This document shows, piece by piece, positions 15,625 to 59,979 of a stretch of DNA of 64,000 bases; positions within the stretch are counted from its first letter, which is position 1, and each line of letters begins with the position of its first letter. Where the stretch lies: assembly GCA_918797485.1 (NCBI GenBank), contig CAKKNE010000003.1, positions 2,480,001-2,544,000 of the forward strand. The letters run 5' to 3'. The notes below the pieces were generated by a model. The model made no database searches. It was not told the DNA's origin and saw only the letters and a program-made list of their open reading frames with translations. Both the position numbers and the translations under genes were made by a program. This DNA comes from Pelagomonas calceolata. Its lineage: Eukaryota.

Positions 15625-15644
15625 GCTAGTGTCTCACAGCTAGC
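15625..15644 (+). promoter_or_regulatory. CTAG dyad element copy 1
   Basis: GCTAGTGTCTCACAGCTAGC in a divergent intergenic region. Confidence 0.6.
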
Positions 15645-15902
15645 TCCGAGGATCATTTTCAGAACTTTGAAGAACTCTCTTGCACCCGCGAGACCCTTTA
15701 CGGCAGGTACAAGGTCACCGCGTGCGAGCCCCTCGAAGCCCTGTTCAGAGAGCTTGGCTTTCAAAGCTAATTTACTACACCCTTGGCGCGTGATACCACG
15801 CAAGGATTGGTGGTTGAAAAGCAGTCCCGCTGTCCTATCAAGCTGTGCCATTCAAAGCTCGGCGTGATTTCGCGGCAGTGTGCCAAACACAGCATTCATA
15901 TC

Positions 15903-16951
15903 ATGGGCTGGATTTTAAACCTGTGGTGCGCGCTCGCATTCATCAGCAGTGCCGCCGCCCTGTCAGTGACGCGCGACGCCGCCGTCGTCGTCCCAGGATT
16001 TTTGGAGGGTGCAGCGGAATTCGTCGGCGTCGCGGAGGCGCTGCGGCGGCGCGGCATCGCGGCGACGGTGGCGCCGATCCACCGCTGGCACTGGATTCCG
16101 TGTTTGGGCGGCCGGTCCGTGCGACCGATCCTCGCGCGTATTGATCACGCTTGTGCTTACGCGACGACGGCCGAGGAATTGGACGTCGTCGCGCCATTTC
16201 CCGATTACTCGGCGGCAGATCTCGTCAGCGACTTCGTGAACAATCCCGGAGGCGTTTTGAAGGCCGGCGGCTCGGCAGATCCGGACGAGTTCCCGTACGT
16301 CGAGCCGCGCGGGAGCTTCGGCGCCTTCAACGGCCGCGAGCGGCGGCGCGGCTGCAGCATCGTCGGCCACAGCGCCGCGGGCTGGATCTCGCGCATCTAC
16401 CTGAGCGAGGAGAAGTACGGCGGCCACTCGCACCGCGGGCTGGCCCGGGGCGTCCGACGGCTCGTGACGCTGGGCTCTCCGCACGCCGCTTCGGACGGCG
16501 TCGCGTTTGCCAACGTGGCGTGGGCGCGGCGGCAGCCATCACCCGTCAAAGCTCTCGCGGTCGCGGGCGCCGGCTTTCGAGGCGACGACTCCGGATCATT
16601 CACGCGGGACTCGTACGAGTGAGTGACGCGGCGTCCATGCGACATGTCTTCTTGAGGCCATCAACGCGGCGCCATCGACGCGAGGCCATCGACGCGGCGC
16701 TATAGACGCGACGCCACCGCAGGTTCTGCGGCCTTTCCAAAGCAGAAGCGGCAACGGCCGACGGTGACGGCGTCACGCCGCTCAGCTCCGCCCTGGACTT
16801 CGAGGGCGCGGAACGGCTCACCCTCGCCGGAACGACGATCCACGCTGCGAAGCTGCCGTCGTTCCTGTCGCCCGAGCTCGCCGAATCCGACGCGCAGTGG
16901 TACGGCGACGAGGCGAGGATAGACGAGTGGGCTAGGTTTCTTGTGGACTAA
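15903..16951 (+). CDS. Alpha/beta hydrolase (PGAP1/lipase-like), 2 exons (15903-16618, 16723-16951)
   Basis: Signal peptide, VPGFL, GHSAAG, LVTLGSPH, GDGVTP; intron 16619-16722 GTGAGT...CGCAG. Confidence 0.85.
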
Positions 16952-16966
16952 TCATTTCACAAATTC

Positions 16967-18112
16967 TTAGAACACGACATAGCTCCCCGGATGACCCCAA
17001 TATTCGACGATGATGTCGCCGATCTCCGCGGGAACACGATGACCGACGATGCGCTGGACGATGGTCGTGAGAGCGCGCAGCTGGTCGCGCTCGTATTCCT
17101 CGTATGCAGCAAATCTGCAAGCACCGCGGCTCACTAATTTACCGCATTCTGCGCATCGCTTGCGGTGCTTGCTGATTTGCGGCTCACTAGTAATCAGGGC
17201 GTCGACTGAGCGAGCAAAACGATCGCGATCCTCGGAGGCAGTCTCGCCCGGGCGCACGAAAAACTGCGCGTCAACAGCTGCTTTGCGGATTCGGTTGAGA
17301 TATTCGACGTTGATGCACAGGGCGTCTCGGTCTATCGAGTAGAATGCCCAGTGCACACAGCACGGTTCGGCGCGGAACAACAAATGGAGCCCTCGGGGGC
17401 TCCCTTCGCACATCGCAGCCTCAACAACATCGCTAGTCAATTCTGCGCCCGCGGCGAGGAGGGTCTCGATGCATTTGGGGGTCTTGTTCTCCGCAGCGAA
17501 TTCCAGCGGCGCACAATCTTCGTTGTCTTTAGCATTAACGTCGCTACCGGCTGCGATGAGTAATTTACAGATGGCTACATTGTTATGGCGCGCCGCGTGG
17601 TGAAGTGCCGTCATGCCCTCGGCACTTTTCGCGTTCGGGTCGGCACCATGTTCTAGCAAGCTCGTCACCACGCTCGCACCGTGCTTAACATTTTCGACTG
17701 TGGCGTGGAACAGCGGCGTCCAATCGAGCCATTTGGACCGCGCATTTGGATCGGCGCCCGCCTCGAGCAACGCCACGACGAAGTCTAGGCGATCAGGAAC
17801 AGCATAATGCAACAGCGCACCGCGAGTCCGGCCTTCGCTCGCCGAGGCGATGCCTGGCCGTAAACGTAGCATATGTTTGAGCGCCTTGCGTCCGCGTGGC
17901 CATATTGACAACATTTCAATACATCTGCCATACTCTTGGTCGTCGAATTCTCTCAGGGCGCATCGCGCCAATCCCTGCATCGTCCGGCGGTCGTCCAATC
18001 CCCGCGGCGTCCAATCCCTGTTTTTGCGAATCTTATCCTTCAGAAATCTAACAATTGCTAAGCCTTTATTCTGCGAAATTTTCCGCCATTTATCCTTGAG
18101 AGAGCTCACCAT
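16967..18112 (-). CDS. Ankyrin-repeat protein
   Basis: LLEAGADPNA, TPLFHA, TALHHAA, LIAAGSDVNAKD repeats. Confidence 0.8.
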   Translation of the reverse strand: MVSSLKDKWRKISQNKGLAIVRFLKDKIRKNRDWTPRGLDDRRTMQGLARCALREFDDQEYGRCIEMLSIWPRGRKALKHMLRLRPGIASASEGRTRGALLHYAVPDRLDFVVALLEAGADPNARSKWLDWTPLFHATVENVKHGASVVTSLLEHGADPNAKSAEGMTALHHAARHNNVAICKLLIAAGSDVNAKDNEDCAPLEFAAENKTPKCIETLLAAGAELTSDVVEAAMCEGSPRGLHLLFRAEPCCVHWAFYSIDRDALCINVEYLNRIRKAAVDAQFFVRPGETASEDRDRFARSVDALITSEPQISKHRKRCAECGKLVSRGACRFAAYEEYERDQLRALTTIVQRIVGHRVPAEIGDIIVEYWGHPGSYVVF

Positions 18113-18263
18113 GGTCTCACAGCTTGTCCACCACAAACATCCGGCAGACGAGCCGAAGCGATGGAATTGATGCTCAGCTGGATTGCTGCGGCGCTGTAGA
18201 CCGCCCGAAAGACGGAAACACGCGGCAGCAAGCAAGCTGCGTCGCAAACCGCGGAGCGAGCTA

Positions 18264-18285
18264 GCTAGTGTACACAGATACTAGC
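18264..18285 (+). promoter_or_regulatory. CTAG dyad element copy 2
   Basis: GCTAGTGTACACAGATACTAGC, divergent intergenic. Confidence 0.6.
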
Positions 18286-18514
18286 GCAGCGCTCCGCGCT
18301 TGCAATTATTGTTAGCCGCAAAAGAGCTCAGTGACGGGCCTCGGGGCGCGTGGTTACTCGCATTTATATAATTGAATAACCAGTCGTCGCTTCCACGTCT
18401 CGGGCGTGCTGCCACATACCCGGGACAGCGCCACAGCAGTGCTCCAGCGCCAAGAAGAAGCCGTGCTCCCGGAGACCGCCGTAGGGAGACGGGACCGTAC
18501 CGCAGTGCCGGTGA

Positions 18515-19357
18515 ATGGGCTGCACCACCTCGACCATGGGCAACGACGTAGCCAAGATGGCCGGCCTCGGCCCGCCGACCAACAAGACGGGCTCGAGCGT
18601 CGTGCGGAAGAAGGTCGAGCGCGCGTCCAAGACTGGTGTCCTATCCCTGACGGAGCACAAGCTCGAGGCCGTGCCGAAGATCGTCTGCGAGCAGCTCGGC
18701 GGGAGTGCCTCGCGACTGCGAACTTTGGACCTGTCTCGCAACAAACTTGATAAGCTACCGGAGCAGTGGAATTTTCCCAAACTCACAACCTGCAACCTCT
18801 CGCAGAACCGATTGACGCGCCTCCCGGAACTTGGTCAAGCTCTAAAAAAGCTCGACGCGAGTGAAAACCGCCTGACGGACGTCGTCAGTTGTTTGACGAA
18901 CGCGGAGGCGCACCTTGAAGAATTATCATTGTCGAAGAATCCGTCCCTGGGCACGGGCAACCTCTGGCCCGCCGTCGCGCTGCTCACGCGGTTGACTTTG
19001 TTGGATGTGTGCGGCTGCGGCCTCCGCTCTCTGTTAGATGGCTCCTTCTCCCTCCCTGAATTAGTTGACCTGCGGGCCGACGACAACCTCATCGAGGCGG
19101 TCGATATTGCGACGAAGGCGCCTGCATTACGACGGTTATCCCTCGCGCGGAATCGTTTGCAAGCACAGGGCATCGCGACGTCACTATTACGCCTATCAAG
19201 TTTATCGCACCTGGACCTGCAGGGCAACCCTCTCACAAAAAGGCAGTTCCTCGACGTGCCGGGCTGCGACGACTTTTTGAAACGAAGAGAAGAGCACCGG
19301 AAGAAGCAGGGCGGCGAATTTGCCGAAATGGGCGTCTGCGGCCTCGACGACCAGTAA
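18515..19357 (+). CDS. Leucine-rich repeat protein, LRRC57-like
   Basis: ERASKTGVLSL, LRTLDLSRNKL, LDLQGNP, C-terminal basic tail; MG start. Confidence 0.8.
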   Translation: MGCTTSTMGNDVAKMAGLGPPTNKTGSSVVRKKVERASKTGVLSLTEHKLEAVPKIVCEQLGGSASRLRTLDLSRNKLDKLPEQWNFPKLTTCNLSQNRLTRLPELGQALKKLDASENRLTDVVSCLTNAEAHLEELSLSKNPSLGTGNLWPAVALLTRLTLLDVCGCGLRSLLDGSFSLPELVDLRADDNLIEAVDIATKAPALRRLSLARNRLQAQGIATSLLRLSSLSHLDLQGNPLTKRQFLDVPGCDDFLKRREEHRKKQGGEFAEMGVCGLDDQ

Positions 19358-19816
19358 GTAGCTAGTGTTTTAATCGCGGCGGCGCAGGCGGTGTTCGTGG
19401 CTCGCGTCGCGGCGACGGCGTCGGGGCGGCGAGAGAGACGCGGCGACGGCGTCCAGAGGGCGTCATCCGATGTAGTAATGCCAGTGGATGAAGAAACATC
19501 AATTACGTCAAGGGGGGAAGGTAGTATAACCAGAATAGCAGGAAAGGAGAGGAAGGTATGTTCGCGCACCACTAGAGGTGCCACAGCAGCGGCCCGTGGC
19601 CGTGGATCGCCCGGCGCCCCGCATGGCCGACGTCCCTCGAAATGTCCTTCGCGAAGTGGCCGTCGGCGTTGAAGATGCGCAGGCGGCTCCACTCCGAGTC
19701 CACATCTAAATTCTGCCAGTCGACGTTCGCCAGCTTCTTCCGGAAGTAGGCGCTCAGGTCGCACTTTTGGTTTTTGCAGTCGCGCTCGTAACCCTGAAAT
19801 GTAGGTCGACTCACTT

Positions 19817-19840
19817 GCTAGTGTCTTACAGACCGCTAGC
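19817..19840 (+). promoter_or_regulatory. CTAG dyad element copy 3
   Basis: GCTAGTGTCTTACAGACCGCTAGC. Confidence 0.65.
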
Positions 19841-19983
19841 GAACGTGATGGCGCGCATCGATCGACTCATGCGAGCACCCAGGCGCGCGCGCGCGCGCGC
19901 GACTTTAACGCTCCGCGCGCGGGGCCCGGACGCGACGGCCCCGTAGTACGCCATCGCCGCGAAGCTACCTACAAAAACCAATC

Positions 19984-21162: not shown

Positions 21163-21349
21163 GGTTTTGGTGCCGTCTCCTGCGGCGCGTCGATGGCGTC
21201 TGGCTACTCCCACACGGCAGCCTGTAAGGGAGCCGGCGCGTCGCGGCCCACAAGGCGAAAGTGCTCCGGCCTTGGTCTGGATCTACCGGTGGGCTGCCCT
21301 ATCTATCGTTTCGTAGTCGTGCAACGCCCGGTTTGGCAGCCCCAAAAGT

Positions 21350-21373
21350 GCTAGTGTGTGTCGATACGCTAGC
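21350..21373 (+). promoter_or_regulatory. CTAG dyad element copy 4
   Basis: GCTAGTGTGTGTCGATACGCTAGC, divergent intergenic. Confidence 0.65.
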
Positions 21374-21617
21374 TACCTAAAACAGCATCGCAAAAGTCGG
21401 TCGCTGCTATTGTCCCTGTGGCGCGCGCACGTTGGGTGGGCTGATTGATTACTGCTGCGAGTCTGCCGCCCAACAGTTAGAGCGCTTCGCCGCCGCCCGC
21501 CGACAAATAACACCTTGCCACAGCACGCCGCCGAGCAGCACGCCGCCGCAGCTGTCGCAGTCGTTGGAAAAGCACCCGCGCAGTCGTAAGATCCATCGCT
21601 GCGGGCGCGCAAGACCG

Positions 21618-24143: not shown

Positions 24144-24165
24144 GCTAGCGTATCGACACACTAGC
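24144..24165 (-). promoter_or_regulatory. CTAG dyad element copy 5
   Basis: Reverse complement GCTAGTGTGTCGATACGCTAGC, upstream of ARPC5. Confidence 0.65.
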
Positions 24166-24656: not shown

Positions 24657-24718
24657 GTATGACTAATGGAGTAGTACCTCGCCGACGGCGCGATGAGGGC
24701 CTACAGCAGTAGATGAAT

Positions 24719-26479: not shown

Positions 26480-26501
26480 GCTAGCGGACTGAGACACTAG
26501 C
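26480..26501 (-). promoter_or_regulatory. CTAG dyad element copy 6
   Basis: GCTAGCGGACTGAGACACTAGC, divergent intergenic. Confidence 0.65.
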
Positions 26502-26726: not shown

Positions 26727-27737
26727 ATGGGCCTCGCCGCCGCGACGCTCGACGCCTTCCTCGCGACCTGCTTCACCTGGGCCGTGACGGCCGCCGGCGC
26801 CGCTTTAGTTTTTGTGCTCCCACCGGACGAGGCGACGCAGCGGCAATTACTAAGACCGATGCTGGGGTTTGCGGGCGGTGTGATGACCTCCGCCAGCTTC
26901 TTCTCGCTGCTCGCGCCGGCCTTGGAGCTCGCCGAGGACCAGCTGGGCCGGAGGTGGTCCTTCGTCCCTGTTGCCGTTGGTTTCTTCTTGGGCGGCGCGT
27001 TCCTCTATTTATGTGATGTCTACATGGAAACGCAACAGATCCACGACCCGCTCGCGCTCATGCAGGACGCCGTGCTCGGGCGGAAGGCGAAGGCGAAGGC
27101 GGACTCGCCGTTGCGGCGGTCGCCGCGGAGCAGCAGCAACCCCTACGCGACGCCGTCGAACGCGCGACTTAGGAGACCGGACGCGCTGCCGCGCGTGCCG
27201 TCTTCCTTAGAAGGTGGGCGCGGGCCGCCACAGCCGGACGACGACTCCACCGCAAAAAAGGCCGCGGCGGCGCGGCGGGCCGTCGCGCTATTAGTGTTTG
27301 CGATCACGCTGCACAACTTCCCCGAGGGCCTGGCTGTGGGAGTTGGGTTTGGCGGCGCCGCCGCGGGCCTCGCGGGCCAATCTAGAGCGAAGGCCATGAA
27401 CCTCGCTCTGGGCATCGGGCTGCAGAATTTCCCCGAGGGCCTCGCCGTGTCGATGCCGCTCAAACGGGCGGGACTGTCGTCGTACAAAGCGTTCTTGTTT
27501 GGGCAGCTGTCTGGTGTCGTCGAGCCGGTCGGTGGTATAATGGGTGCGGCGCTCGTAACGCTTGTGACACCGATCCTGCCTTACGCCTTAGCCTTCGCCG
27601 CCGGCGCGATGATCTACGTCGTCGTCGACCAGCTGATCCCCGAGTCGCTCGCGGGCCCGTCTCAGAACAAGCAGCAGACGCTCGCGTTCATGGGCGGATT
27701 CGGGCTGATGATGGTGATGGACGTGGCTCTCGGTTAG
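26727..27737 (+). CDS. ZIP (GufA/ZIP11-like) zinc/iron transporter
   Basis: ITLHNFPEGLAVG, IGLQNFPEGLAVS, SGVVEP, AFAAGAMIYVVVDQLIPE. Confidence 0.92.
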   Translation: MGLAAATLDAFLATCFTWAVTAAGAALVFVLPPDEATQRQLLRPMLGFAGGVMTSASFFSLLAPALELAEDQLGRRWSFVPVAVGFFLGGAFLYLCDVYMETQQIHDPLALMQDAVLGRKAKAKADSPLRRSPRSSSNPYATPSNARLRRPDALPRVPSSLEGGRGPPQPDDDSTAKKAAAARRAVALLVFAITLHNFPEGLAVGVGFGGAAAGLAGQSRAKAMNLALGIGLQNFPEGLAVSMPLKRAGLSSYKAFLFGQLSGVVEPVGGIMGAALVTLVTPILPYALAFAAGAMIYVVVDQLIPESLAGPSQNKQQTLAFMGGFGLMMVMDVALG

Positions 27738-27801
27738 ACGGCGCCTCTTCTTCTAAGGTATACTATGTGTCTTACTGATCTATCCCCGAGAAATCGCGAC
27801 T

Positions 27802-27825
27802 GCTAGTGTCTTACCGACCGCTAGC
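27802..27825 (+). promoter_or_regulatory. CTAG dyad element copy 7
   Basis: GCTAGTGTCTTACCGACCGCTAGC. Confidence 0.65.
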
Positions 27826-27954: not shown

Positions 27955-28728
27955 ATGGCTACAGTGCCCGCAGTCCAAGAGGCTCCAAAGGCGCGGCCGA
28001 CGCACTGTCCGCCGACGAGGCCGAAGACGAAGCGCCCGCGCACGCTCGCCGACGTGCCGCAGGCTGTGCTACACAAAGAGATTTTCAGGTTCGACGCGCT
28101 CCAAAGGGAGAACGAACACCTACGGTCCGAGGTCGCGCGCCTCCGCAAAATACTAACCCAACCCTACTACGAAGCCTCGTTGGAGCTCATCAAGCGCCAA
28201 GCAGCAATGGGCCAGATAGAGGCCGACCTCTTCACCGACGACCTCGTAGAAGCCTATGCGGACAGCGACGAACCGCTGACGCTGGCGGATCAATGGCCGC
28301 AGCTGACGACGGAGGACAAGTGTTCCATCGTGCCGCAGCTCGTCGCCCGGGGGTTTTGCGTGGAGACGCTCGTTGGAGCCAACGTGGCCGCCCCGATTTC
28401 CGTGTATTTTAAATACGAATGGGACGACGCGGACCGGGCTGGGAGCGGCAAGATGCACCGTTTCCATGCGCCGCCGACGCCGCGCTTCAAGGTCGGGGAC
28501 GCGATCCTCTGCAAGACGGGGCCCGCGGCGGACGCGTGGGAGCCAGGCAGCATCGTCAAGATCGGTTGGGCGGAATCGGTGTTGGAGCTCGAGAAGGATT
28601 ACGTGGCCGCGTACCAGATACAGCTCGCCAATTCGGAGGATCTGGTATATGCGCCGAACGACACCGACGAGTATGTCCGCCCTTATGTCGACTCACCCCC
28701 CGCGAAGAGACGGAAGCTAGACAAGTAG
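27955..28728 (+). CDS. Hypothetical protein with a C-terminal SH3/Tudor-like beta domain and NLS
   Basis: RFKVGD..LC...WEPG.IV..GW...YQIQL...YAPNDTDEYVR; PPAKRRK. Confidence 0.65.
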   Translation: MATVPAVQEAPKARPTHCPPTRPKTKRPRTLADVPQAVLHKEIFRFDALQRENEHLRSEVARLRKILTQPYYEASLELIKRQAAMGQIEADLFTDDLVEAYADSDEPLTLADQWPQLTTEDKCSIVPQLVARGFCVETLVGANVAAPISVYFKYEWDDADRAGSGKMHRFHAPPTPRFKVGDAILCKTGPAADAWEPGSIVKIGWAESVLELEKDYVAAYQIQLANSEDLVYAPNDTDEYVRPYVDSPPAKRRKLDK

Positions 28729-37643: not shown

Positions 37644-37756
37644 GAATGAACTGCGGTCTTCTGCGCGGGGTTTTCACCTAGCTAGTTCGGCAATGGACCA
37701 GTTTGAGGGGTAACCGGCCCGGGACGCGGTATCCAGGGCTCCGCTGAAAAATCCGG

Positions 37757-37780
37757 GCTAGCGTCCAGAAAGACACTAGC
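37757..37780 (-). promoter_or_regulatory. CTAG dyad element copy 8
   Basis: GCTAGCGTCCAGAAAGACACTAGC. Confidence 0.65.
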
Positions 37781-39563: not shown

Positions 39564-40483
39564 TTATTCCCCACCGGTGGGCGACTTCTTCTTCTTTTTC
39601 TTCTTCTTCTTTTCGGAACCAGTCGGCGACAGCGCGTCGCCCGCGTCGCCCTTGGACCTCTTCTTTTTCTTCTTTTTCTTCTCGGAACCCGTCGCATCGC
39701 TCTTCCGCTTCTTCGTCGGCGCGGAAGTCACGACGCCCGGCGGCGCGGAGCCGTCGCGCGGCTCGCGCGTGGCGTTGGGAAAGAAGCGCGCCCTGATGTC
39801 CCGCGGCTGGAGCTTGCCGTTGTAGGCACTCCGCGACCTGTGTGGAAATCAACCAGTGAGTTAGGTTACTCCACGTCATCGATCTGCCGCAGTTATTTGG
39901 ACGACGTCGCGTCGATGGCGTAGAAACTCCACGCCATCGAGCAGATGCCATTACCAGGGCGACGTCCCGTCGATGGCGGGGGGCGTCCGAAATTTGATCT
40001 CCACACAGCCCGCGACCAGATCGGGTGCACGTAGCCCGTCTTCTCGGCGAAGTCCTTGCCGAGCAATTCCTCGCCGATCGGATCCTGGGACCAGACGCTC
40101 TCGACGGCCGGTGCGACGATGCTAGGGACGTATTTCGCGGCGTCCATTTCCGTCGTGGCCGGGTCGTGCTCCACCGCTAATGATAATTGCCTTGATACGG
40201 GCACGCCCGCACACCTCAAAGAGCCGCTCCGCGTCTTCACGAGGGGCCGCATGTCGTCCGCGAGCGCGGACTCCTCCCGAATCACGATGTCGCCGCCGAA
40301 GGCGCGGCCCACGGGCCCGCCGTGGTCTCGGGCCGCGCCCGGCGCCCTCGCTACAACATCACCGACGTTGCCCTGCTCCTTCGCGATCGGGAGGTTGTTG
40401 ACCGCATCGAGTGAGATGCTCGACGGGACGCGGAGGAGCCAGATCTCCTTGTTCGGGTCTTCGATCGTCTTTTGTTTGACCAT
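39564..40483 (-). CDS. RNA polymerase I subunit RPA34/PAF49-like, 2 exons (40483-40017, 39837-39564)
   Basis: KEIWLLRVP near the N-terminus and a poly-Lys C-terminus (two TGSEKKKK repeats); intron removal restores the frame. Confidence 0.6.
39838..40016 (-). mobile_element. Introner intron (TIR + 8-bp TSD)
   Basis: CTGTGTGGAGATCAA...TTGATTTCCACACAG; TSD GTCGCGGG/GTCGCGGA; CTAAC branch-point candidate. Confidence 0.9.
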
Positions 40484-40713: not shown

Positions 40714-40737
40714 TCTAGTGTCTTACTTGACGCTAGC
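40714..40737 (+). promoter_or_regulatory. CTAG dyad element copy 9
   Basis: TCTAGTGTCTTACTTGACGCTAGC, divergent intergenic. Confidence 0.65.
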
Positions 40738-40805
40738 AATCGCAAAGGTGACATATATATCACTTAGACTCGACGTTTTATAATCACAAATCAAGGTAGC
40801 GCATC

Positions 40806-41309
40806 ATGGGTGGTCAGTACGACAAGAACTTCGCCCGCCGCGCCGTCCAGTTCATGGGTTTCGCCTCGCTCTTCGCTCTGAGAGCTGCAGTCACCTCTCT
40901 CCGCCAAAATGGCCACGGCGTGATGTGGCCCGCGCCGCCGATCAACGCGACGCTCGCCACCAACCCCTACCTGGGCCCGTGGGCGCCGCAAGTACCGGGC
41001 ATGATGGGTCCGTGGGGCTCGGCCCCGTCTCAGCAGATCATCGCCTCCGTCGACGCGATGCCGCTCATCATGGCGCAACACACGCGGCGCTTCCCCGACA
41101 TGCCTCGGTCGCAATGGAACCACCCGCTCAACCAGCGTGGCGACCTGAGTCAATTCAACAATGTCCGCGTGGACCGCTCGACGTCAACGACCGCCAACGG
41201 CCTCACCGCCGCCCGGCAGCTCCTGGACGACTGGTGCGCGATGACGGACCTGGAGCGCGAGGAAGCCATCGCGTTCTGCGACTGGTACTCGCCGAACATC
41301 CAGCCCTAG
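40806..41309 (+). CDS. Hypothetical protein
   Basis: 167-aa ORF with strong C/G third-position bias. Confidence 0.55.
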   Translation: MGGQYDKNFARRAVQFMGFASLFALRAAVTSLRQNGHGVMWPAPPINATLATNPYLGPWAPQVPGMMGPWGSAPSQQIIASVDAMPLIMAQHTRRFPDMPRSQWNHPLNQRGDLSQFNNVRVDRSTSTTANGLTAARQLLDDWCAMTDLEREEAIAFCDWYSPNIQP

Positions 41310-42075
41310 GCTAGATGTTAAGTTTCTTTATATTCACTAGTGCCTCTGTGCCGGGAGACGCGCCGCGACTTCCACGGTGTCGTCTGCGGGTCGTCGCCTT
41401 AAAAAGTCGGCGTTTGACGGTGGAGGTGGCCGCGGACGCCTGGCCGTCTCGCGCTGCGGCCGCCCGTAGCTATTTGCAGGACCGCGATGGCTACAAATCC
41501 GCAACGCGAAGACCACATGACTCGCAGGTCGTATTGTGCACGCAGAGAGCACCTAGCGTAGTCTAATCGATTCCGGAAGTGGGACGCGTAGACTGCCTCT
41601 TCCAGATCGGCTGATGAGAGACCGCGGTCAACGAATACTCGAGTGTCCGGTTTCACTAGGGAAGCAAGGATACCAACCACACACGCGGGCCGCGCGTTCG
41701 CCTCGGTTTCATACCGCTCGGTGCCGGCGACGAATCTACTCGTCCTGCGCCTCGCTGAGGGTGGAGTTGTGGCCAGGAGCCGTCCCGCTATCTAGGGGCC
41801 GCCGCGCGCGCCGCGCAGTACGTCGCAGTGGAGCTCGCCAGCAATCGTTGCGCTGTCGCGGCCCATCGGCCGCGGCTTCCTTCATGAGTGCTGTCGCCGC
41901 CGCGCCCGCCGCGTCGCTGCGCTGGTGAGGTGGGCAAGAGGTGCGCTGCTTTTAGCTTTGGCAGCGCTGAGCCATCGCAGAAATGCTGCTGTTGTGCAAA
42001 ATCAATCGAAACCAAGGCGCCTCGTAATACTGCGCCTCGGATGCGGCCAAACTCCGCGTAGCACCGTACCGTGGA

Positions 42076-42099
42076 GCTAGCGTCATGTGAGACACTAGA
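42076..42099 (-). promoter_or_regulatory. CTAG dyad element copy 10
   Basis: GCTAGCGTCATGTGAGACACTAGA. Confidence 0.65.
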
Positions 42100-42187
42100 A
42101 AGCCCAGCCAAGTGGCTTGGCGGCCGACGTACGAGCCGCATTGGTGCTGCTGCGTTGGTGCTCGTTCGGAAAATAGCTCGCTGCTGC

Positions 42188-44273
42188 ATGCGCGGCAGCC
42201 TCCTCTTCTGCTTGGCGGGCGCCGCGACCTCCTTCGTGCGGGAGCCGCGCCGGCTGGCCTTGCTGCAAGCGATGCCGACGGGCAAGCAACGTATTGCAGA
42301 GCTAGAGGCGCGGCCGCTCTCTGGCCACACGCCGCCGGGAGAAGACTCGGTGGAGTGGACGCCGGAGCAGCTCGCGGAGCACTTCGGTTTGCCGGGCTGC
42401 CGCGTCTGGTGCGCGTGGCACAAAACAAGAGGGTATACCCTAAACGACGTCAAAGTCGTCGTGCCCTGGGACGACAAGAAGCCTCTTTCGCTCGCCAGAG
42501 CCAAGGAGGAGTTTCGTGCGAGGGCCTTACTCGATGAGGAGGACGACTCTGGTGCTGGAGGGCTCTCAGCCGCTGCTCGCAGTGCCGCGTCGACGCATGA
42601 GCCGAACGCCAAGAAATCGGCGGCCGGCAGGGCGCAGCGCCTGAGAGAAGTCGAGATCGAGGCGGAGGCGAAGAAGTGGTCCGGTACCCCTCAAGAGCGC
42701 CAGCTCACGCTTATGGGGGGCACTGCCCTGGTGCCGCACCGCTCCGTCTCGGTCGCCGACTGGCAGTACTGGAAGGGAGAGGGCGCCTATCCGACGACGC
42801 CGGGCGTGCCGGGCTTCGAGCCGTCGTTTTTCTATGCGCGGAAGCACTCGGCGATGAACCGAGTCCTCGAGCGCGAGGCGGATGAAGGGATGACGTGCCA
42901 CGAATGGGAGCTCGAGCTCTTTCGAGGGGCGGATAAGGAGCTGACCATCAACCGCGGCGACATGGCCCAGTCCTGCCAGTGCCTCGCCACGGCTGGCGTT
43001 ATTACTAATGATCAGATCGGCCAGCAGGTGCGCACGCGGCGTTTTTTCAATCAGCTCGAGGCGCCTTCAAAATTTGAGAGTGGCCTCGGCGGTAGCCGCG
43101 TTTTTGACGGTCGTTGTCGCACAGGCCATCGAGTGGGGCTTCGGCTGGCCGTTGTTCCGCAACGGCGAGGTCGTCAAGATCGACGGCGCCGCCGCCCACG
43201 CCCAGGCCAACGCCTGGTTCAACTTTTGTGAGGACAACCAGCTCGACTTGTGGGCGAAGGAGATTAGTAGAGACGGCGACGGCTTCACCGTGCGCCCCAG
43301 CAACAAGGGCGACGCCAAGTACGCCTACGAGCGCTGCGGCCGGTCGAAGTGGGACAAGACGTGCTTCGCCGACCTCATCGTCAAGAACTCGTGGGCCGGG
43401 CGGCCCGACGACCTGCCGCGCCTGGACACGCGGCCGCTCGATGAGAACAACTTCCAGCTCGCGAAGATCCAGAAGGGCGCCGCCGACGAGAACGGCCACT
43501 TCACGGTCACGACCCTCTGCTACATCGAGCGCGCCGGGCGGAACGCGGTCGTGCATCTGCCGGCGACGCGCCACGGCCTGCTGCCGCTCAAGCGCATCAC
43601 GGAGGAGGAGCGCATCGAGACCTTGGGGCGTTTCCGGGAGTTCGCCGAGGCGCGGAACGACGACGCGAAGCTGAAGCAGTTGGCGCGCGGCGTGATGGTC
43701 CACCCTTCACGCGTTAATCAGAAGCGCGGCCGCGGCCCGGGCCAGAACTACGGCATCATCGTGACGAGGGACTCGCCCGAGAGCGTCGCCCGGGCCCTCT
43801 GGACGAACATGTTCAACCCGGAGGGCGCGCGCGCGACGAAGATCATCCAGGACTTCCTGGACGACATCTACGCGCTGATGGCGGAGTTCTTCCCGGCGGC
43901 GCACCACGCGGCGCTGCGCCGCGACCCCAAGTTCGTGGAGATGGCGCTGCGCGGCGTCATCGACGACGAGAGCGAGTACGAGCCGAACTACGACGAGCTG
44001 CCGACGATCCTCAAGTCGCTCACGTTCAACGACGACGTCGCGAAGAGCTTCACTGCGTTCGGCAAGGTCCTGCGCGACCGGTGCATCACGCTCAGGAAGG
44101 AGCACCCGGGCTGCATCACGTGGCCGCCCGGGCCGACGCCGCCGGGACCGGGGCCGGGGCCGGGCGGTGGCGGCGGCGGCGGCGGCGTCGGCGGCGACCC
44201 TCTCGACGGCATCGACGCCGGTGACATCCACCCCGGGCACGACATGTCGCCGGACGAGGTGTGGAATTTCTAG
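42188..44273 (+). CDS. Hypothetical protein with a signal/ATS-F leader and Pro/Gly-rich tail, 2 exons (42188-43027, 43125-44273)
   Basis: Phase-0 intron 43028-43124 (CAG|GTGCGC...CACAG) joins the two long ORFs. Confidence 0.7.
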
Positions 44274-44349
44274 GAAGCTTGTGCTTGTGCTTAAGTATTA
44301 GCCTATTATAGCGCACACCACCGCCGTGATTATATGTATACAACTTTAC

Positions 44350-46549: not shown

Positions 46550-46573
46550 GCTAGTGTGTTACAGACCGCTAGC
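46550..46573 (+). promoter_or_regulatory. CTAG dyad element copy 11
   Basis: GCTAGTGTGTTACAGACCGCTAGC, divergent intergenic. Confidence 0.65.
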
Positions 46574-49741: not shown

Positions 49742-49764
49742 GCTAGTGTGCTAATGTCGCTAGC
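49742..49764 (+). promoter_or_regulatory. CTAG dyad element copy 12
   Basis: GCTAGTGTGCTAATGTCGCTAGC, divergent intergenic. Confidence 0.65.
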
Positions 49765-50462: not shown

Positions 50463-52338
50463 TTAATCTCCTCCACCCCACGGCCGGGGCACGGGCATGC
50501 CGTCGGCGTCGATCTCGTTCATGCGCCTTACACCAGCAAGGCCCGCGTCGATTATCGCCTTGTTCACCGCGAGCGCGGCGGCCTCCTGATCATCAAAATA
50601 GCCGATGTGGCGCTTGACGGTGTTCGCATCATTATAAGTCGCCCGCCACTGCTTGCTCTGCTTGCGCGCCCAGGTCACGCCCCAGTACTTGGACTGTTGG
50701 GCCGCCGTCGGATCTCTGAGAGGGGGCTTCAGGGCCAGTTTCCCGTCGACGACCGGATTCACCTTGCGCACGCCTTCCAAGCCCGCCTCGCGAATCGCAT
50801 CATTATAGGCGTAGGCCGCCTCCTCCTCGTTCCCATAACGACCTACGCTCTTTCTTTTCCCATCACCATCGGTATACTGCGCCCGCCAGACCCTTCCTTT
50901 TCTATCCCACGTGACGCCCCAGTACTTGCTGACACCGTATTTCGTCACCGCGAGGGGATCAGGCGCTATGACCGACGCCTTGGCCCGCCGATGCGGCGCG
51001 CCCGGCGGCACGAGCACACCATGCTCGTCCACCGCATTCATCCGACGTCTACCCTCCAGGCCCGCGTCGAGCACCGCCTTGTTACGCGCGTAGGCCGCCT
51101 CGCGCTCGTCGTCGTACCGACCTATGGTTCGATCCTTGCCATCTAACTCGTTGAGAGTGACTTTCCACTTCCTCCTTTTTTCATCCCAGGCCACGCCCAC
51201 GAAACGACTCACCCTTTTAGCCCAGTCCTCGATGTCGTCTGAAGTGGCTTCTGAAGGCTCCTCCACGTCCTCCTCTTGAAGGGCCTCCGCGAGCTCCCGC
51301 CGTAACCGATCGACTTCCGATTCTACGACAGGGTCGCACCGTTGTGCGATGTATTGCGCAGATTCTGAGAGGGCGTCCTCGGCCTCCCTGTGTGGCACGG
51401 ACACCGTCGCGAAACTGTCTCCGTGCACTCGCGAGCGATGCGGCATCGCGACGGACGCTGCGTCAGCACCTGAGGAACTTGGGGAAGAGCATAAAGTCGT
51501 GGAACATCTCCTCGTAGGTTTTGTGTGTGACTTCTGTGCCGGAGGCTTTCGCTGTTAGTGCTAGCGTCAAGGCATCAACATGCAACGTTTCCTGCTCTCC
51601 ACTTAGTATCATCATATCGTCGACGCCGGACGCGGTCAGAGCGAAGGCGTGGCGCGCGTCATTTTGTTCGTCGTTCACGTGTCTTGCCGGTTGTAACGAC
51701 GAAACGTCCAGAAAATCGCCGTCCGAAGATAATGACCGTTGCACATCCTTCGTCGGGTGATGCAGCAGGTAGGGGCACCAGAGCAGCACGCCCGCTGGTT
51801 TACTTGAGAGTTGTTGCGCCGCCCTTAGTGCTAAGTAAGCGCCGGCGGAATCACCAGCTAGCACGATCGGACCGGTCAGTTCATTGTACTGCCCGACGAC
51901 GTCGTTTACTGCATCAGCAATAGTGAACTCGGGCGCTCTTCTATATTTCGGCAATAAAGCCGTACACCCACCGGGCACGCGCGCGATCAGCGAAGCGACG
52001 GCTCCGCGATACGCGTGCGGGCTGCCCGCAAAGAAACCGCCGCCGTGGACAAAACAAATAGTGGCCTTCGATTCACTATCTCTAGGCGCGATGCGCACTC
52101 CACCATAGTCCGTCGTCGTCGCCTCGTGCGTGCTCCCTAAATGGGGGCAGCGCGCGTTGCCCCGTTCCATCAGCTCCTCGAAGAGCGTGCGGTTCCGCTC
52201 GACGTCGCCGCCGGCCCACCAGGGCGTCTTGCGGATGGCGTTTAGCAGTTGTTTTACGACGGGTCTCTGTTGTTTTTGTTCCGGTGGTGCCGTGCTGCTG
52301 CGGCGCAGGCTTTGGGCTAGCGCGCGGCGCAGCATCAT
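50463..52338 (-). CDS. HSL-family alpha/beta hydrolase fused to three AP2 domains, 2 exons (52338-51470, 51387-50463)
   Basis: HGGG, GDSAG, E, MFHDF; predicted intron 51388-51469 supplies the missing helix REAEDALSESAQYI in frame with 3x (Y/F).GV.W...W...G.(Y/F)..E.EAA.A.N. Confidence 0.75.
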
Positions 52339-52598
52339 TGGCTTCAGCAGCAGCGCGTGTGGCAGCACTGATCAGCAATGTGGGTGCTGGATGAATCAGT
52401 CTTCGTCGCGTTCGCCTTACGCGCTGCTGCGAGCCGTCACTGCCAGCACAAGCCCTGGTGCTTTGCTGATGCGAACAGGTTCCCGCGCAGCGCTTCGTTG
52501 GCGCAAGCCAACTCAATAATCAGTCGAATGCAATAGTTAACGTAGGCTCAACGCAACTATGCGAGCCGCTGGGACGAGTTTTGTCGGCTGAAGTGCTT

Positions 52599-52621
52599 GC
52601 TAGTGTGTTTACAACGCTAGC
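52599..52621 (+). promoter_or_regulatory. CTAG dyad element copy 13
   Basis: GCTAGTGTGTTTACAACGCTAGC, divergent intergenic. Confidence 0.65.
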
Positions 52622-52961
52622 GGAAAAAAAAGTGCCGACGACGGCACCGAGCGGCTGGCTCCTCATACCCACAGCGCTTGGATCTGAGAAAGCCCTCGAG
52701 CCACGCAAGGCTGCGCGTCGACGCCGAAGCGCCTCCGACTTGCGCACGGCTGCTGACCGGAACACGCCTGACCACCCGCAGCGGTAAAATAGCCGCGCGG
52801 AGAGCGCGCCATCGACGCGGGCCTCGAGGGCCGTCGTAGACTAAACGCCGTCGACGCCCGGGGTAGAATAAACGCCGTCGACGCGCGCGCATCGCCGCGC
52901 CGAGTCGCCGGTCGCAACCATTTGGCCCCGCACGCGCCAGCGAAGGGCGTTAAGCGCCGAC

Positions 52962-55391: not shown

Positions 55392-55492
55392 GGAGTAAGG
55401 GGCTATCTATGTGAATTTCTAGAGTGGGTACCTAGTCACGGTGTGGAAAACTTACTGCGCTCCACAGGGGTAAACAAAAGCATGGAGGAGGT

Positions 55493-57357
55493 CTAGTATA
55501 GTTGCTGCTGCATCGAAAGGGCCGCGCGCGCAGATTGGTGCACGACGGTGGTGGTGTGATGATGGTGGTGGTGCACGACTATGGGGGCGGGCGGGGCGCT
55601 CGGCGGCGCCGTCACGATCTCTTTCACGTACTCGTACCGGCGCCGCTGGCAGATGGAATCGAGCCACACGCGGAAGGGCCAGGTGAGCAGCAGCAGGTTC
55701 GCGACCCAGTACCAGCCCGTCGAGGCGTATTTCGGCTTCGCCCCCGGGTACATCTCGACCTGTGTGGAAAACAAGTGAGTCAGGTTATCCAGTGACAACG
55801 TCGCCTCGATGGCGTGGACATCGCACAGACGCAACTACGGAAGCACGTCGCGTCGATGGCGTGGGGCGCCCTATATTTGATTTCCACACACATTCCTACC
55901 AAAAGCCGCTCCCGGAACTCGGGGAGCTCGAAATCTTGGGAGAAGTCGAAGTGTCGGTCCCGCCGATGGTGGCGGATGAAGCGCCGCTTGTACATGCCAA
56001 AATGCTGGCGCGTATAGTCGTCGCCGAACGTCCAGCGCTTGCCGAACTCGACCTTGGCGAGCAGCGTCGCCGGCCAGCGGTTGTAGGCGTCGCCGCCGCT
56101 GTCACGCACCCAGGAGTACTGGTACACGTGCGACGCCGCGTGCGTGTTCACGCGCACCTCCTTCGACCGCCGCACGCGCCGCTCGCGCCCGTGCTGGTCC
56201 TTAACTGTTTCCCACCAGTGATGCGTCTCGAAGTGGTAGCACTGGATTTTGAGCTTGATGATCGGGCGCGAGCGTTTCACCTGTTCGATGTGAGGCTTCA
56301 GCGCAGAGTCGCGCGTGAGGTTCCACAGGAATTTATGCGTGTCGGAGAAGCACAGGCACTCGGCGACGTAACAGACCAGCAGGATCCAGAACGCGTTATC
56401 CGACGCGTCTTCCTCGCGGCCATAGCTTCTCATGTTCCAAAAGTCAGCGCATTTCCCTTGGTACAGCCACGTCGCATTGCAGAAGGGCAGCGGCACGACT
56501 ATGATGAGTATGAGCACTGTCAGGGTGAGCGACTTCAAATGCGGGCTTTGGCCGCAACCGGGGCCACAACCGGCGCCTTGTTCGACTTGCTCCGCGACGG
56601 CCACGGCTTCGGCGGGCTGGCCCTCCGGGACGAGTGCTGGCTGCTCCACGTAGGCGGGCGGCGCGTCGTCGGCGGGTTTTCCGACACCGACGCCCGGCTC
56701 CACCACCATGCCCTCAGGCGTTGCGTCCTCGTCTTCCGTATTGAGGAACGCCGGTGTCGCGTAGGCGAACGCCTCTGTATCCGTAAACATCGGCTCCCAC
56801 GGGGGCGCGGACGGCGTCGGCGCCGGCTCGGGCGCCGGCGGCGCGCTCGGCGTTTCTGCAGGTAGCAAGGGATTGGCAATGGTAGTAGTGGCCTCGATGT
56901 CGGAAACAACAGGGACGGCGTCTGGCGCTTCGGCCAAGGTCCGGCCCGCCCAATGGCCGCTCTCCTTCGCGCAGACGCAGCCGACGATGCCGACCATCGC
57001 CGAGCACACGAGGTATATAATTATGAGCGTGCACAGGCCATCATATTCGTCCATGTACGTCGCCTCCGTGGATCCCGGGGCATAGCAGCAGCCCGTCACC
57101 ATAGTCACTCCCGGCCCACACTTATCCGGTGCGCTACACGCCCACGCCAGGTCGGTCTCGTAGGAGAATCCGTCGCTGCAATAGCCGGTGCCGGGGCACG
57201 CGCAGCAGATGCTCTGGCCTTTGCTGCTCTGGCCTTGCGCCCGGCACGCCTGGTCGTCGCGCTCGCGCGTGGGGTCGCAGCGGTCGTCTGTGAGCTTGGT
57301 GTAGGCATTGGCGTAGGCTAGGGACAGCAGGAGCCATAAGGCAGGGGCTGCCTTCAT
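55493..57357 (-). CDS. TMEM151-like membrane protein with a Cys-rich ectodomain, 2 exons (57357-55900, 55759-55493)
   Basis: Signal peptide; IQCYHFE...VNTH...; WYW...LLLLTWPFR; intron removal joins the frames. Confidence 0.75.
55760..55899 (-). mobile_element. Introner intron (degenerate TSD)
   Basis: GTAGGAAT-GTGTGTGGAAATCAA...TTGTTTTCCACACAG-GTCGAGAT. Confidence 0.85.
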
Positions 57358-57635
57358 CGTGAAGATTCGATACTCTTGATGGATGGAACAAGGAGCTGCG
57401 GCTGCCCAACGTTCGGAGGCAGCCCAAGCATGCGTCCTGCGGCCGGAGAGATTATGCTGAGTGCGTGCGGGGTCGGCGCGCCGGGTTTTCTCTGCGAAAG
57501 AGCGAGACCTCTCACGGCACTCCCTCCGCCGCAACAAGAGGACGCATGCTGTAGCTCCGCTGCTTGCCCTCATCGAGCGGCAGTGCATACAGGACGCGGC
57601 TAATTGAGCACGGGCGCGTACGAGTAGGACGGACC

Positions 57636-58777
57636 ATGGGTGCGATTCAGCGTGCTCAAAATAATCGAGCGAGACGCCGGAAGCGCTGCGCGGGGACGTC
57701 CGCCGGCCGTTCAGCAGGAATCCGCCAAATAGCAGCACCTAGACGACATCGGCGCGCGCGCAGGTCCTCCGCTGTTTTCCAAGATCAATGAAGCGTGTGA
57801 TGACGTACGCACCAGTGTCCTGTCGCCACGGTACCGCGCGGCGCGCCGACTACGCAGCGCGCCGGCCACCGCCGGCCGCCGTCAGAGCGTGGCAAAAAAA
57901 ACTCACGCCACGGCCGCCACGCAAGGACGCTGTCGTGCCGCCGACCCGGCGCGCCGTCGGAACGCGTCAGAGAGACCGCGCCCGCACACACAACACCCAC
58001 CCTCACACCACACAGCTCATCGGCGACGACTACACGTCCAAAACCACCCTCAAAGTGAAGTGCGCCCCGAAGAGCGGCCCGCCCATCTCCTACACCATCG
58101 AGGACGAGGTCAAGCCCGACGGCGTCGCCGGCAAGCTCACGCTGAAATACGTCGAGCCGTCGACGGGCATCTCCTTCGACAAGGTCACGCTGAAGGGTAG
58201 CGCGTACGGCGTCGAGGCGTCGAAGACCGTGTCCGGCGTCAAGTGCAAGGCGAAGCTCGACCCGTTTGATGTCGGTACGCTGTCGGGCTCCGCGGAGCTC
58301 AAGGAGTCGAACTTCACGGCGACCTGCGGCGCGGACTCGAAGAAGATCGTGGGGAGTGCTACTGCAAGCCCTTTCGCTGGTGGTGTACTAGGCTTCAGCT
58401 TCGAGTACCCGACGGGCGGCGGCGCGCTGGCGCTGTCCGCGGGCGGCTCGGCGACGGTCCAGGGCGTCTTCGCGAGCTGCATCTACACGTCCAAGAAGGT
58501 CTTCAACTTCGGCTTGATGTTCGACGCGACCCCGGACATCACGGTCGCGGCGACGGGCGACAGCACGGGCCAGGACAGCGCCTGCGTCGGCCTCAAGTGG
58601 ATGTGCGGCTCGGCGCTGGCGGGCGTCACGTCGCTCGGCGTGAAGACGACGACGGCGGCGCTCAGCTTGGTCGCCGTCAAAAAGTTCGGCAAGGACGCGA
58701 CGCTGGCGGTCTCGGCCTCCTCGAAGTACGACGCGCCGGGCGCGCCGGCGTACGGCGCCCAGCTCACGATCGGGTGA
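57636..58777 (+). CDS. VDAC: Mitochondrial porin (VDAC), 3 exons (57636-57639, 57764-57804, 58016-58777)
   Basis: Spliced N-terminus MGPPLFSKINEACDDLIGDDY, amphipathic beta-strands, C-terminal YGAQLTIG. Confidence 0.8.
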
Positions 58778-58833
58778 GCGCTGTTTTCCCCCTTTGCCGA
58801 CCGTCCCCCCTCCCCGCGGTCTAACGATGCAAA

Positions 58834-59754
58834 CTAGTCTCTATAAAAACTGAAGAAGGAGATGTCGCCGCCGAGCCAGTAGAGCGCCGCGACGCATGGC
58901 GCGATGGCGAGAGCGAAGCAGACCACCACAAAGGCCGGCACGATCTGCGCAAAGGGCGCGCAGCCCGCCTTGCCGACGCGGTGCGCGACCATCGACGCCT
59001 CCGTCGCGAAGAGCGCAAACAAGCTCGTCGAGGACTCGAGCGTCTGCTGCGACGGGTGGAGCGCGCTGACTCTATCCCACCACGCACTGCTCCCCAGTCC
59101 GAACGCCACGCAGTCGGGGATGAAAATAGCACCCAACGTGCCGATCGCCACGAGCCCCGTGGCGCGCAGGGTTTCCGTTTCCGAGAGCTCGGGCCGCTCC
59201 GAGCCGTAGAGGCCGAGCAGCGTCAGCACGGGCGCGACCGCACCGTAGGCGAAGACGAGCACCGCCAGCGCCGCGCAGGGCGCGTCGTAGTCCGACAATC
59301 CGGGCGGGCACGCGGTGGAAGCACGTAAAGCGAGCCACGAGACCGCCAGGCTGTAGGCGCCCGCGAAGGCCGTCACCGTGGCATCATCAATAATGCCGCG
59401 CCGCTCGTTCGGCGAGATGTTGTATTTGGAAACGAGCTGCGCGACGGCCGCCGCGGCGGAGGCGGCGCCGAGCGCGACCGCCCAGCGCTCGGCGTCGACG
59501 TATGTCGTGTCGTATGCGCCGACGACGTTCGCGAGCGAGATGCGCCCGCCGACGGCCAGCAGTGCCATCGCTAACGCATCTCTCGGATTTGCGAGGGCTT
59601 CTGTGAGTGGTGGTCGGTTCGAGAGGTCGGCGGAGTCGGTGATGAGGTAGTCTGGTTGGGTTCGCAGAGGTGCGAGTCGTGGTCGGTCGAGTGAGAGTGG
59701 TCGTTGGTAGGCGTGGGCCGCGCAGGCGATCAGTGCGACTGAGAAACGGCCCAT
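58834..59754 (-). CDS. Multi-pass membrane protein, probably plastid-targeted
   Basis: Signal peptide ending AHA-Y; several hydrophobic helices. Confidence 0.65.
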   Translation of the reverse strand: MGRFSVALIACAAHAYQRPLSLDRPRLAPLRTQPDYLITDSADLSNRPPLTEALANPRDALAMALLAVGGRISLANVVGAYDTTYVDAERWAVALGAASAAAAVAQLVSKYNISPNERRGIIDDATVTAFAGAYSLAVSWLALRASTACPPGLSDYDAPCAALAVLVFAYGAVAPVLTLLGLYGSERPELSETETLRATGLVAIGTLGAIFIPDCVAFGLGSSAWWDRVSALHPSQQTLESSTSLFALFATEASMVAHRVGKAGCAPFAQIVPAFVVVCFALAIAPCVAALYWLGGDISFFSFYRD

Positions 59755-59955
59755 GGTGTTTCCGGTTCGCATAGCTTTGGAGCGCTTGGCTGCCGTGTCC
59801 TCTGTGCACGCTGTGCAGGGTTGGCAAATGCTCGCACGAGTGCCAAAGTCGATACGGACTGGAGCCCAGGGCACAACCGCTAGTCGAATCAACCTCTCTA
59901 CTGGCACAATTGCTGCAATCCGGCTGAGCAATAGCCAAGTTTGCGCATGAGGCGA

Positions 59956-59979
59956 GCTAGCGTCCAGTAAGACACTAGG
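59956..59979 (-). promoter_or_regulatory. CTAG dyad element copy 14
   Basis: GCTAGCGTCCAGTAAGACACTAGG, divergent intergenic. Confidence 0.65.

Follow-up and report, generated by a model that had tools for sequence, protein, structure and literature searches.

The 64,000-bp stretch of Pelagomonas calceolata DNA analyzed here (assembly GCA_918797485.1, contig CAKKNE010000003.1, positions 2,480,001 to 2,544,000; hereafter the window) has a GC content of 61.6% and carries 14 copies of an element built around two CTAG tetranucleotides. An earlier reading of the same letters (the original prediction) had located these copies and described them as an imperfect palindrome at promoters. A check of the sequence bears out all 14 positions, as well as the occurrence of the element in both orientations, with nine copies on the plus strand and five on the minus strand. 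The pattern CTAGTGT-N6-11-CTAG is found 14 times in the window, compared with 0.08, 0.03 and 0.18 occurrences expected under Markov models of order 2, 4 and 6, respectively (60 simulations each; the maximum count in any simulation was 2). When the window is scanned with a weight matrix built from copies outside it, 13 of the 14 copies score at least 17 bits and one other site exceeds 11 bits, which gives a bimodal distribution of scores.

Nine copies lie between divergent gene pairs, in agreement with the original prediction. Copy 1 (15625..15644, plus strand), a short form with a CTAG-to-CTAG spacing of 14, separates OTCase (ATG 15511, minus) from an open reading frame (ORF; ATG 15903, plus). 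Copy 2 (18264..18285, plus), the most degenerate, has a spacing of 16 and lies between an ankyrin gene (ATG 18112, minus) and an LRR gene (ATG 18515, plus). Copy 4 (21350..21373, plus) is flanked by an aldo-keto reductase-like gene (ATG 21162, minus) and a PDZ protein (ATG 21618, plus), and copy 6 (26480..26501, minus) by a beta-helix protein (ATG 26236, minus) and a ZIP transporter (ATG 26727, plus). The remaining divergent pairs are RPA34.5-like (ATG 40483, minus) and an ORF (ATG 40806, plus) at copy 9 (40714..40737, plus); 6PF2K/FBPase (ATG 46293, minus) and an ORF (ATG 46804, plus) at copy 11 (46550..46573, plus); PheRS-beta (ATG 49451, minus) and a Dabb protein (ATG 49963, plus) at copy 12 (49742..49764, plus); an alpha/beta hydrolase (ATG 52338, minus) and a CLC channel (ATG 52962, plus) at copy 13 (52599..52621, plus); and, at copy 14 (59956..59979, minus), a minus-strand gene whose start was not placed and Es2 (ATG 60174, plus). 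Four further copies lie upstream of a tandem gene or of a gene plus a fragment, again as predicted. Copy 5 (24144..24165, minus) is 193 bp upstream of ARPC5 (p16-Arc; ATG 24357, plus); copy 7 (27802..27825, plus) follows the ZIP stop codon at 27737 and precedes the ATG at 27955 (plus) by 131 bp; copy 8 (37757..37780, minus) lies upstream of a DUF6739 gene (ATG 37956, plus); and copy 10 (42076..42099, minus) is 90 bp upstream of the ATG at 42188 (plus), with an uncertain minus-strand fragment on its other side.

According to gene calls based on Pfam and on a coding model that was trained on the window, no window copy falls in coding DNA, as the original prediction had stated. Copy 3 (19817..19840, plus) departs from that prediction, which counted it among the copies upstream of a tandem gene or fragment and held that none occurs in convergent 3′ regions. 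This copy sits between two convergent genes, LRR (plus, stop 19357) and the aldo-keto reductase-like gene (minus, stop 19984), and is directly upstream of nothing but a 180-bp coding-like fragment (19587..19766, minus) that has no Met and no Pfam match and is probably a gene relic. The statement that no intergenic region has more than one copy holds within the window but fails at a locus outside it, L087, where two copies are ~80 bp apart. About half of the window's gene starts are served by the element. Positions 1–15600 have no copies despite three divergent pairs, and ~3.4 would be expected there at the mean density. Two divergent promoters that lack the element, at 5599 and 10580, both carry AAGCAG(CAG)TCGTTAC, a candidate alternative site; no additional exact copy of it was found in the loci collected.

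These loci, designated by L numbers, come from metagenome contigs that match a strict 16-base pattern, which permits spacings of 16–18 only. The scan yielded at least 123 stretches at 121 loci, 8 of which were excluded as chance matches, being either low in GC or off the pattern (7 with GC below 0.53, plus L073). The 113 retained loci, searched also with relaxed patterns, bring the collection to 149 copies including the window's 14 (135 added). One window copy, the orthologue of a copy in L037, was omitted from the consensus profile as a flank duplicate. The density of the element is 1 per 4.6 kb in the window and 1 per 8.3 kb for unselected copies in locus flanks (19 in 158 kb). Extrapolation to a P. 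calceolata genome that we take to be ~32 Mb gives some 4,000–7,000 copies.

The window's PheRS-beta is identical to a protein in NCBI and UniRef (P0122), 73% identical to that of Aureococcus and 62–63% identical to those of Chrysophaeum and CCMP2097. The GC content, the introner-like repeats and an AP2 gene beside a hydrolase gene, an arrangement also seen in a P. calceolata gene model, agree with the assignment of the window to P. calceolata. We considered whether high-GC loci represent a separate genus and rejected this reading; the helicase of one such locus, L057, is 98–99% identical to large clusters and 55% identical to Aureococcus, and the locus belongs to the Pelagomonas complex, not to Aureococcus. 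The strict pattern matches viral contigs 25 times, each time singly and always without the consensus middle; the refined pattern gives no match in viral contigs, and the viral matches are attributed to chance. In 596 Gb of prokaryote genomes the refined pattern has nine matches. Six of these are on contigs of marine metagenome-assembled genomes (MAGs) with Pelagomonas-like context, two of which bear clearly eukaryote-like ORFs. We read the six as contamination and the other three as chance. Apparent Pelagomonas-like fragments are found on the prokaryote MAG contigs L147–L151 and L154, which are likely chimeric or mis-binned. Neither the window nor any of 20 loci searched matches an Rfam family. 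A link to tRNA was discarded, with no tRNA in the window and two calls in 47 loci.

The collected copies define a polar site of ~30 bp composed of three modules, with the consensus (t)gcTTGCTAGTGTCTTACA(G/T)G(C/A)CGCTAGC(t), or in short form (gc)TTGCTAGTGTCTTACA(G/T)G(C/A)CGCTAGC. The variable spacer of the original prediction turns out to be a mostly conserved middle: of 144 copies, ~80% carry CTTAC directly after the first arm, and only 2–4 bases vary. By position, the bases after the first arm are T in 97%, T in 85%, A in 82% and C in 80% of copies. Nor does the element fit an imperfect palindrome around a free spacer. Its dyad is asymmetric throughout, with 142 T/C forms and no symmetric ones (CTAGTGT..ACACTAG, 0; CTAGCG..CGCTAG, 0). 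The CTAG-to-CTAG spacing among the 144 copies is 14 in 1, 16 in 14, 17 in 45, 18 in 81 and 19 in 3; in the 32 copies not picked by the strict pattern, the same values account for 1, 5, 5, 17 and 4 copies, respectively. Information is sharply bounded and does not rise above background more than 6 bases upstream or ~2 bases downstream (limits −6..+5). It totals 39 bits in all copies and 32 bits in those unselected by the strict pattern. A first arm with its TT and without a second arm was not found in the sequences collected, and sub-families of the middle segment are common to unlinked loci.

The second arm contains GCTAGC in ~95% of copies, while the first arm is GCTAGT. The 6-mer GCTAGC by itself is not enriched in the window (44 occurrences compared with 36–42 expected); enrichment is confined to the composite. 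The second arm also carries a nearly invariant CpG, and the P. calceolata annotation table includes a Dnmt5-like gene (SNF2 plus C5-methylase). Because decay of this CpG to TG would yield the symmetric form that is never seen, the CpG would appear to be either unmethylated or selected. A different CTAG pair with the same 18-bp spacing and an unrelated middle occurs inside a 59-bp repeat shared by L045 (3884–3905) and L137 (14–35). Some copies of the element are accompanied by a ~45-bp GC-rich module (core GGAGCCCTGG), which lies 0–65 bp downstream of the second arm on the same strand, mostly on the gene-end side. This module is found in L033, L037, L045, L056, L057 (twice), L089 and L116, and in degenerate form (19/26) at window positions 37722–37747 (minus strand) beside copy 8.

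The position of the element relative to genes is restricted. None of 144 copies is in coding-like DNA, although coding-like segments make up 53% of locus bases. Both sides could be resolved for 46 copies: 20 are head-to-head, 24 head-to-tail and 2 tail-to-tail, so that 44 face at least one gene start, in either orientation. One or both sides of the remaining 98 copies are unresolved, mostly in short loci. An element occurs in none of 12 convergent gaps of the window, as judged from segment calls, and in 2 of 40 in the loci. There is no orientation bias among tandem cases (15 compared with 9, p = 0.31). The distance from the center of the element to the ATG has a median of 222 bp (interquartile range 185–267, n = 104), and its distribution steps up at 175 bp. 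The genes served encode proteasome, tRNA synthetase, kinetochore and condensin components, transporters, metabolic enzymes and orphan proteins. As the original prediction had it, flanking genes are functionally unrelated, with mixed Pfam families at window copies and loci alike.

Alignment of the flanks on the center of the element reveals a phased composition. Proceeding outward, T/A tracts occupy 15–40 bp, an AT-rich zone 55–95 bp and a peak of CG 105–125 bp. Between 138 and 168 bp, CG dips and an outward, strand-specific CA peak appears (CA is raised, TG is flat), which is followed by a further CG peak at 172–200 bp. The identical arms anchored on the ATG give a flat profile. The intervals were chosen after inspection of gene-facing arms; the pattern was replicated in 67 short-locus arms that had almost no part in this choice (0 of 2000 jitter permutations for CG and 0 of 2000 for CA). 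The CG/CA contrast is also present in the 28 arms of the window (p = 0.0015) and in 174 long-locus arms. The CA peak is found on 112 arms that face gene starts and is absent from 38 arms that face gene ends (p = 0.002; for CG, p = 0.02). The initiator consensus of yeast is YR in the accessible text of PMC3875857, and the coincident CA peak and CG dip suggest a pyrimidine-purine initiator zone, with predicted starts ~150 bp (140–165) from the element. Alternatively, starts may lie near 100–110 bp, behind the AT-rich zone, which would then be TATA-like.

The element is conserved at orthologous promoters. Parts of the window between 37 and 49 kb have orthologous counterparts in L037 and L058, which differ from the window at 35–50% of fourfold-degenerate sites and by 3–10% in protein sequence. 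The element is kept at all three alignable window promoters in L037 (copies 8, 9 and 11) and at the single one in L058 (copy 11). Copy 9 is retained in L037 with a T-CTAG variant, right up to a break in synteny. Two more orthologous pairs keep the element with a 1-bp indel in the middle. Over seven orthologous comparisons, arm positions match in 88 of 91 and 49 of 49 cases, compared with 51–80% identity in the flanks and 52% in random pairs. The unbiased part of this conservation consists of a window copy at every matching place plus the copy at L037:3774, which the strict pattern does not match, yet which shows the same variant as the window. The pinin-like genes of L053 and L093 are identical at 91 of 104 positions. 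In these two loci the element is 205 and 237 bp from the ATG, respectively, and in opposite orientations; the genes on its far side differ. The diverged lineages could be cryptic species, or else haplotypes with deep divergence. The lineage-wide distribution proposed in the original prediction thus holds within the Pelagomonas complex, in several of its diverged lineages, and the range shown extends no further.

Directly beyond a conserved element, gene content differs between the window (40742–44326) and L037 (3801–6065), with an alpha-kinase gene in L037 and other ORFs in the window. L074 (786–910) and L108 (155–280) share a ~125-bp noncoding block beside the element that is 94% conserved in diverged surroundings and has no Rfam match.

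The element is real and conserved, and its position, orientation independence and phased flanks resemble those of a candidate site for a general regulatory factor (GRF). At the level of sequence, it shares with GRF sites the restriction to promoters of unrelated genes, the freedom of orientation and the same profile on both arms. These features suggest a model, which we hold with somewhat better than even confidence, in which an abundant sequence-specific protein binds the element, keeps the promoter open and sets a barrier for the nucleosome and the start on both sides. In this model, a GRF-type protein would occupy the element and, together with the adjacent T/A tracts, keep the promoter free of nucleosomes. 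On both sides, the first nucleosome and the start site would be measured from this bound protein, which would act as a barrier in the manner of Reb1, Abf1 and Rap1 in yeast (PMC3875857, PMC8163753, PMC2897762), and transcription would begin ~150 bp away on whichever side bears a gene.

The proposal of a protein-bound promoter or chromatin site in the original prediction is supported by position, orthologous conservation and phased flanks, whereas its core-promoter version is unlikely. The element shows no strand bias, has a median distance of 222 bp from the ATG and lies ~150 bp upstream of the predicted start; it is neither strand-specific nor overlapping or within ~40 bp of that start. A homodimeric form of the dimeric factor that it also proposed is unlikely in view of the 142 asymmetric and 0 symmetric forms, the three modules and the spacings of 14–19. 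The variation in spacing between 16 and 19, the lack of symmetric forms and the three modules suggest as the probable binder either a single protein of several domains or a heterodimer, with a flexible connection between its parts. AP2-domain proteins are no more than a lead to this putative binder; the accessible supplement of PMC9481584 has at least 17 AP2-domain genes in P. calceolata. A broader proposal, in which the element would be one master promoter-organizing site for thousands of Pelagomonas promoters, with a lineage-specific multi-domain binder that opens chromatin, a possible transposon ancestry of site and binder, and starts set on either side at ~150 bp whatever the orientation of the element, seems to us doubtful as a whole.

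Several observations weigh against the barrier model. Element-anchored CG periodicity of ~180 bp, a proxy for nucleosome phasing, is not significant (p = 0.39). ATG calls closer than 175 bp account for 22 of the 104, including apparently real window starts at 80–142 bp, so the 150-bp geometry is a preference and not a rule. Five of the 14 clear divergent gene pairs in the window lack the element, three of them in 1–15600. Since the pattern itself served to retrieve most orthologous copies beyond the window, their presence is by construction. Finally, the element holds 32–39 bits, compared with the 13–14 bits needed to locate 4,000–7,000 sites in a genome of the assumed size, and weak copies are nearly absent, which is unusual for the site of a single factor and fits descent by copying.

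Descent by copying is the core of an account that we consider unlikely, in which the element would be a domesticated terminus of some once-mobile element that spread into promoters by transposition and was kept since a transposase-derived or host protein binds it. In addition to the excess information and the near absence of partial copies, this account draws on the middle-segment sub-families at unlinked loci, the one in-place inversion or replacement at the pinin-like promoter, and the ~45-bp extension, nine copies of which at eight independent loci are always on the second-arm side and the same strand and whose strong matches occur only beside the element. The element also has CTAG termini and a short imperfect inverted repeat in common with Helitron ends, miniature inverted-repeat transposable elements and excision footprints. 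However, information falls to background outside −6..+5, flanks are unrelated in most copies, and target-site duplications are not in excess (for k = 4, 5, 6 and 8, 48, 15, 7 and 1 of 147 copies, compared with 43, 14.4, 4.6 and 0.4 under the null). Helitron ends have CTRR followed by T, a subterminal hairpin and shared upstream sequence; here, the terminal CTAG is followed by C, not T, in 142 of 149 and 138 of 149 cases. There is no empty orthologous site among the three alignable L037 promoters, although few loci are unbiased, and the CENP-B/pogo families PF03221, PF04218 and PF03184 do not appear among the P. calceolata annotation rows listed. Derivation of the extension from a nearby LTR-like repeat was rejected, as the similarity is not significant and eight of nine extension copies score within the null. 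Of the transposon alternative in the original prediction, what survives is a possible origin; such an origin concerns descent and is compatible with the barrier model.

An improbable third account makes the element an insulator, replication-origin or roadblock site that separates transcription units, with its promoter position a by-product. A long polar site with elastic spacing would suit this role, as would the location of 24 of the 46 resolved copies between the end of one gene and the start of another, that of 2 copies between two ends, and an extension that faces the gene end in about 5 of 6 resolved cases. The near absence of the element from convergent gaps (0 of 12 and 2 of 40) and a phased signature directed toward gene starts only weigh against it, and one copy per 4.6–8.3 kb would be dense for replication origins. 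A hairpin or cruciform acting in single-stranded DNA or RNA is more improbable still. The two arms could form a 7-bp stem that includes one G-U wobble, at a mean of −11 kcal/mol as RNA from one strand, and loop length varies; yet pairing at every variable position equals that expected from independence (for example, 59 compared with 60.7 and 92 compared with 86.5 of 149), a T-C mismatch is commonest next to the stem, a perfect stem never occurs, and the CTTAC of the loop is conserved. Invariant pairs are uninformative for covariation, and Rfam gives no match. The least credible account is that a single condition-specific transcription factor recognizes the element as part of an ordinary regulon. 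The distance of the element resembles that of an upstream activator and some promoters lack it, but the targets span unrelated functions and include about half of the window's gene starts. A tiny intron or splice signal (GTAAG...CTAG on the reverse strand) was rejected on account of the promoter location and orientation freedom; splicing at copy 3 gives no long frame.

Other repeats and genes share this DNA. A ~98-bp repeat, putatively LTR-like, is bounded by TGTTA and TAACA, preceded by a purine-rich stretch and located just past stop codons in L086 (2172–2290), L056 (3126–3209), L066, L099, L133, L134 and L138, with a partial copy at window position 8027. Six of its eight copies are within 200 bp of an element, where 39% of noncoding bases lie. 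A ~186-bp intron of the dynein heavy chain gene (window 63237–63422) belongs to a repeated introner-like family with 73–87% identity among loci, which is also present in L033, L041, L062, L063, L070 and L082; further intron-like repeats are at window positions 761–854, 39839–39948 and 55794–55890. Within window positions 50466–52368 (minus strand), an AP2-domain ORF directly follows the alpha/beta hydrolase ORF, and a P. calceolata gene model with AP2 and hydrolase domains, counted as one gene in the annotation available, is possibly a merged annotation. Within window positions 10831–14358, a bifunctional DHBP synthase/GTP cyclohydrolase II gene has a second GTP cyclohydrolase II gene ~1.2 kb away.

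The original prediction did not recognize the element as a described one, and the literature searched indeed yielded no description. Searches with 11–13-mers of the consensus returned only unrelated papers in a literature whose coverage excludes subscription journals, and searches of the accessible promoter and chromatin literature on pelagophytes, Pelagomonas and Aureococcus turned up no account of it. In the P. calceolata genome paper (PMC9481584), the words "motif", "promoter" and "intergenic" are absent from the main text, and "CTAG" and "palindrom" from the searchable parts of the supplement. Almost nothing on the promoter grammar of pelagophytes, which are major open-ocean primary producers, appears in the literature searched. 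A site of such high information would serve as direct bait to isolate a protein that is perhaps the first GRF from a stramenopile alga. The element would mark gene starts for genome and metagenome annotation and would offer a compact bidirectional promoter part. It also makes two questions testable: whether, beyond yeast and animals, one barrier factor sets a symmetric start-site geometry, and whether barrier-factor sites arise from the ends of mobile elements.

Long or palindromic sites that lie at divergent promoters and open chromatin are familiar from the housekeeping and bidirectional promoters of animals, where they include those of ZNF143 (SBS), BANP (CGCG), DREF/BEAF-32 and M1BP, and the CTCF motif has a variably spaced extension. 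The sequences and lineages of the ZNF143, BANP, DREF, M1BP and CTCF sites are unrelated to the element. In yeast, the Abf1 site is bipartite, and we know of no sequence likeness between the element and yeast GRF sites. The closest stramenopile data concern the INR, FPR, DPEP and CCAAT box of Phytophthora infestans (PMC3599244), among which the accessible text has no CTAG motif. Its CCAAT box is orientation-independent, lies a median of 83 nt upstream of the INR and accompanies less variable expression (PMC3599244). Among the Phytophthora factor sites in the available part of PMC11267843, the sole CTAG motif is the HSF site TTCTAGAA, and none is a long dyad. The 6-mer of the second arm is identical to the GCTAGC element of Toxoplasma AP2XI-5 (PMC13734140). 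That element, as set out in the accessible text, is a single 6-mer found in 12.3% of promoters, peaks 84 bp upstream of gene starts and belongs to a late cell-cycle program (PMC13734140). The isolated enrichment of GCTAGC that characterizes this ApiAP2 site has no counterpart in the window, where the 6-mer occurs at chance.

The closest parallel is with the sites of the yeast GRFs Abf1, Reb1, Rap1 and Cbf1 (PMC2897762, PMC3875857, PMC8163753). In the parts of these papers available to us, those sites, like the element, are promoter-restricted, orientation-independent, near poly(dA:dT) and associated with divergent starts, and the GRF repertoire is lineage-specific. At the yeast sites nucleosomes are depleted, GRF action extends in both directions, and arrays are phased symmetrically irrespective of site orientation, as seen in the symmetric arrays around Reb1 sites (PMC3875857, PMC8163753). 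In contrast to them, the element is longer (~30 bp, 32–39 bits) and combines three modules with a spacing that is elastic between 16 and 19. Its predicted divergent starts would be ~300 bp apart, compared with the ~212 bp predicted in the yeast sources available.

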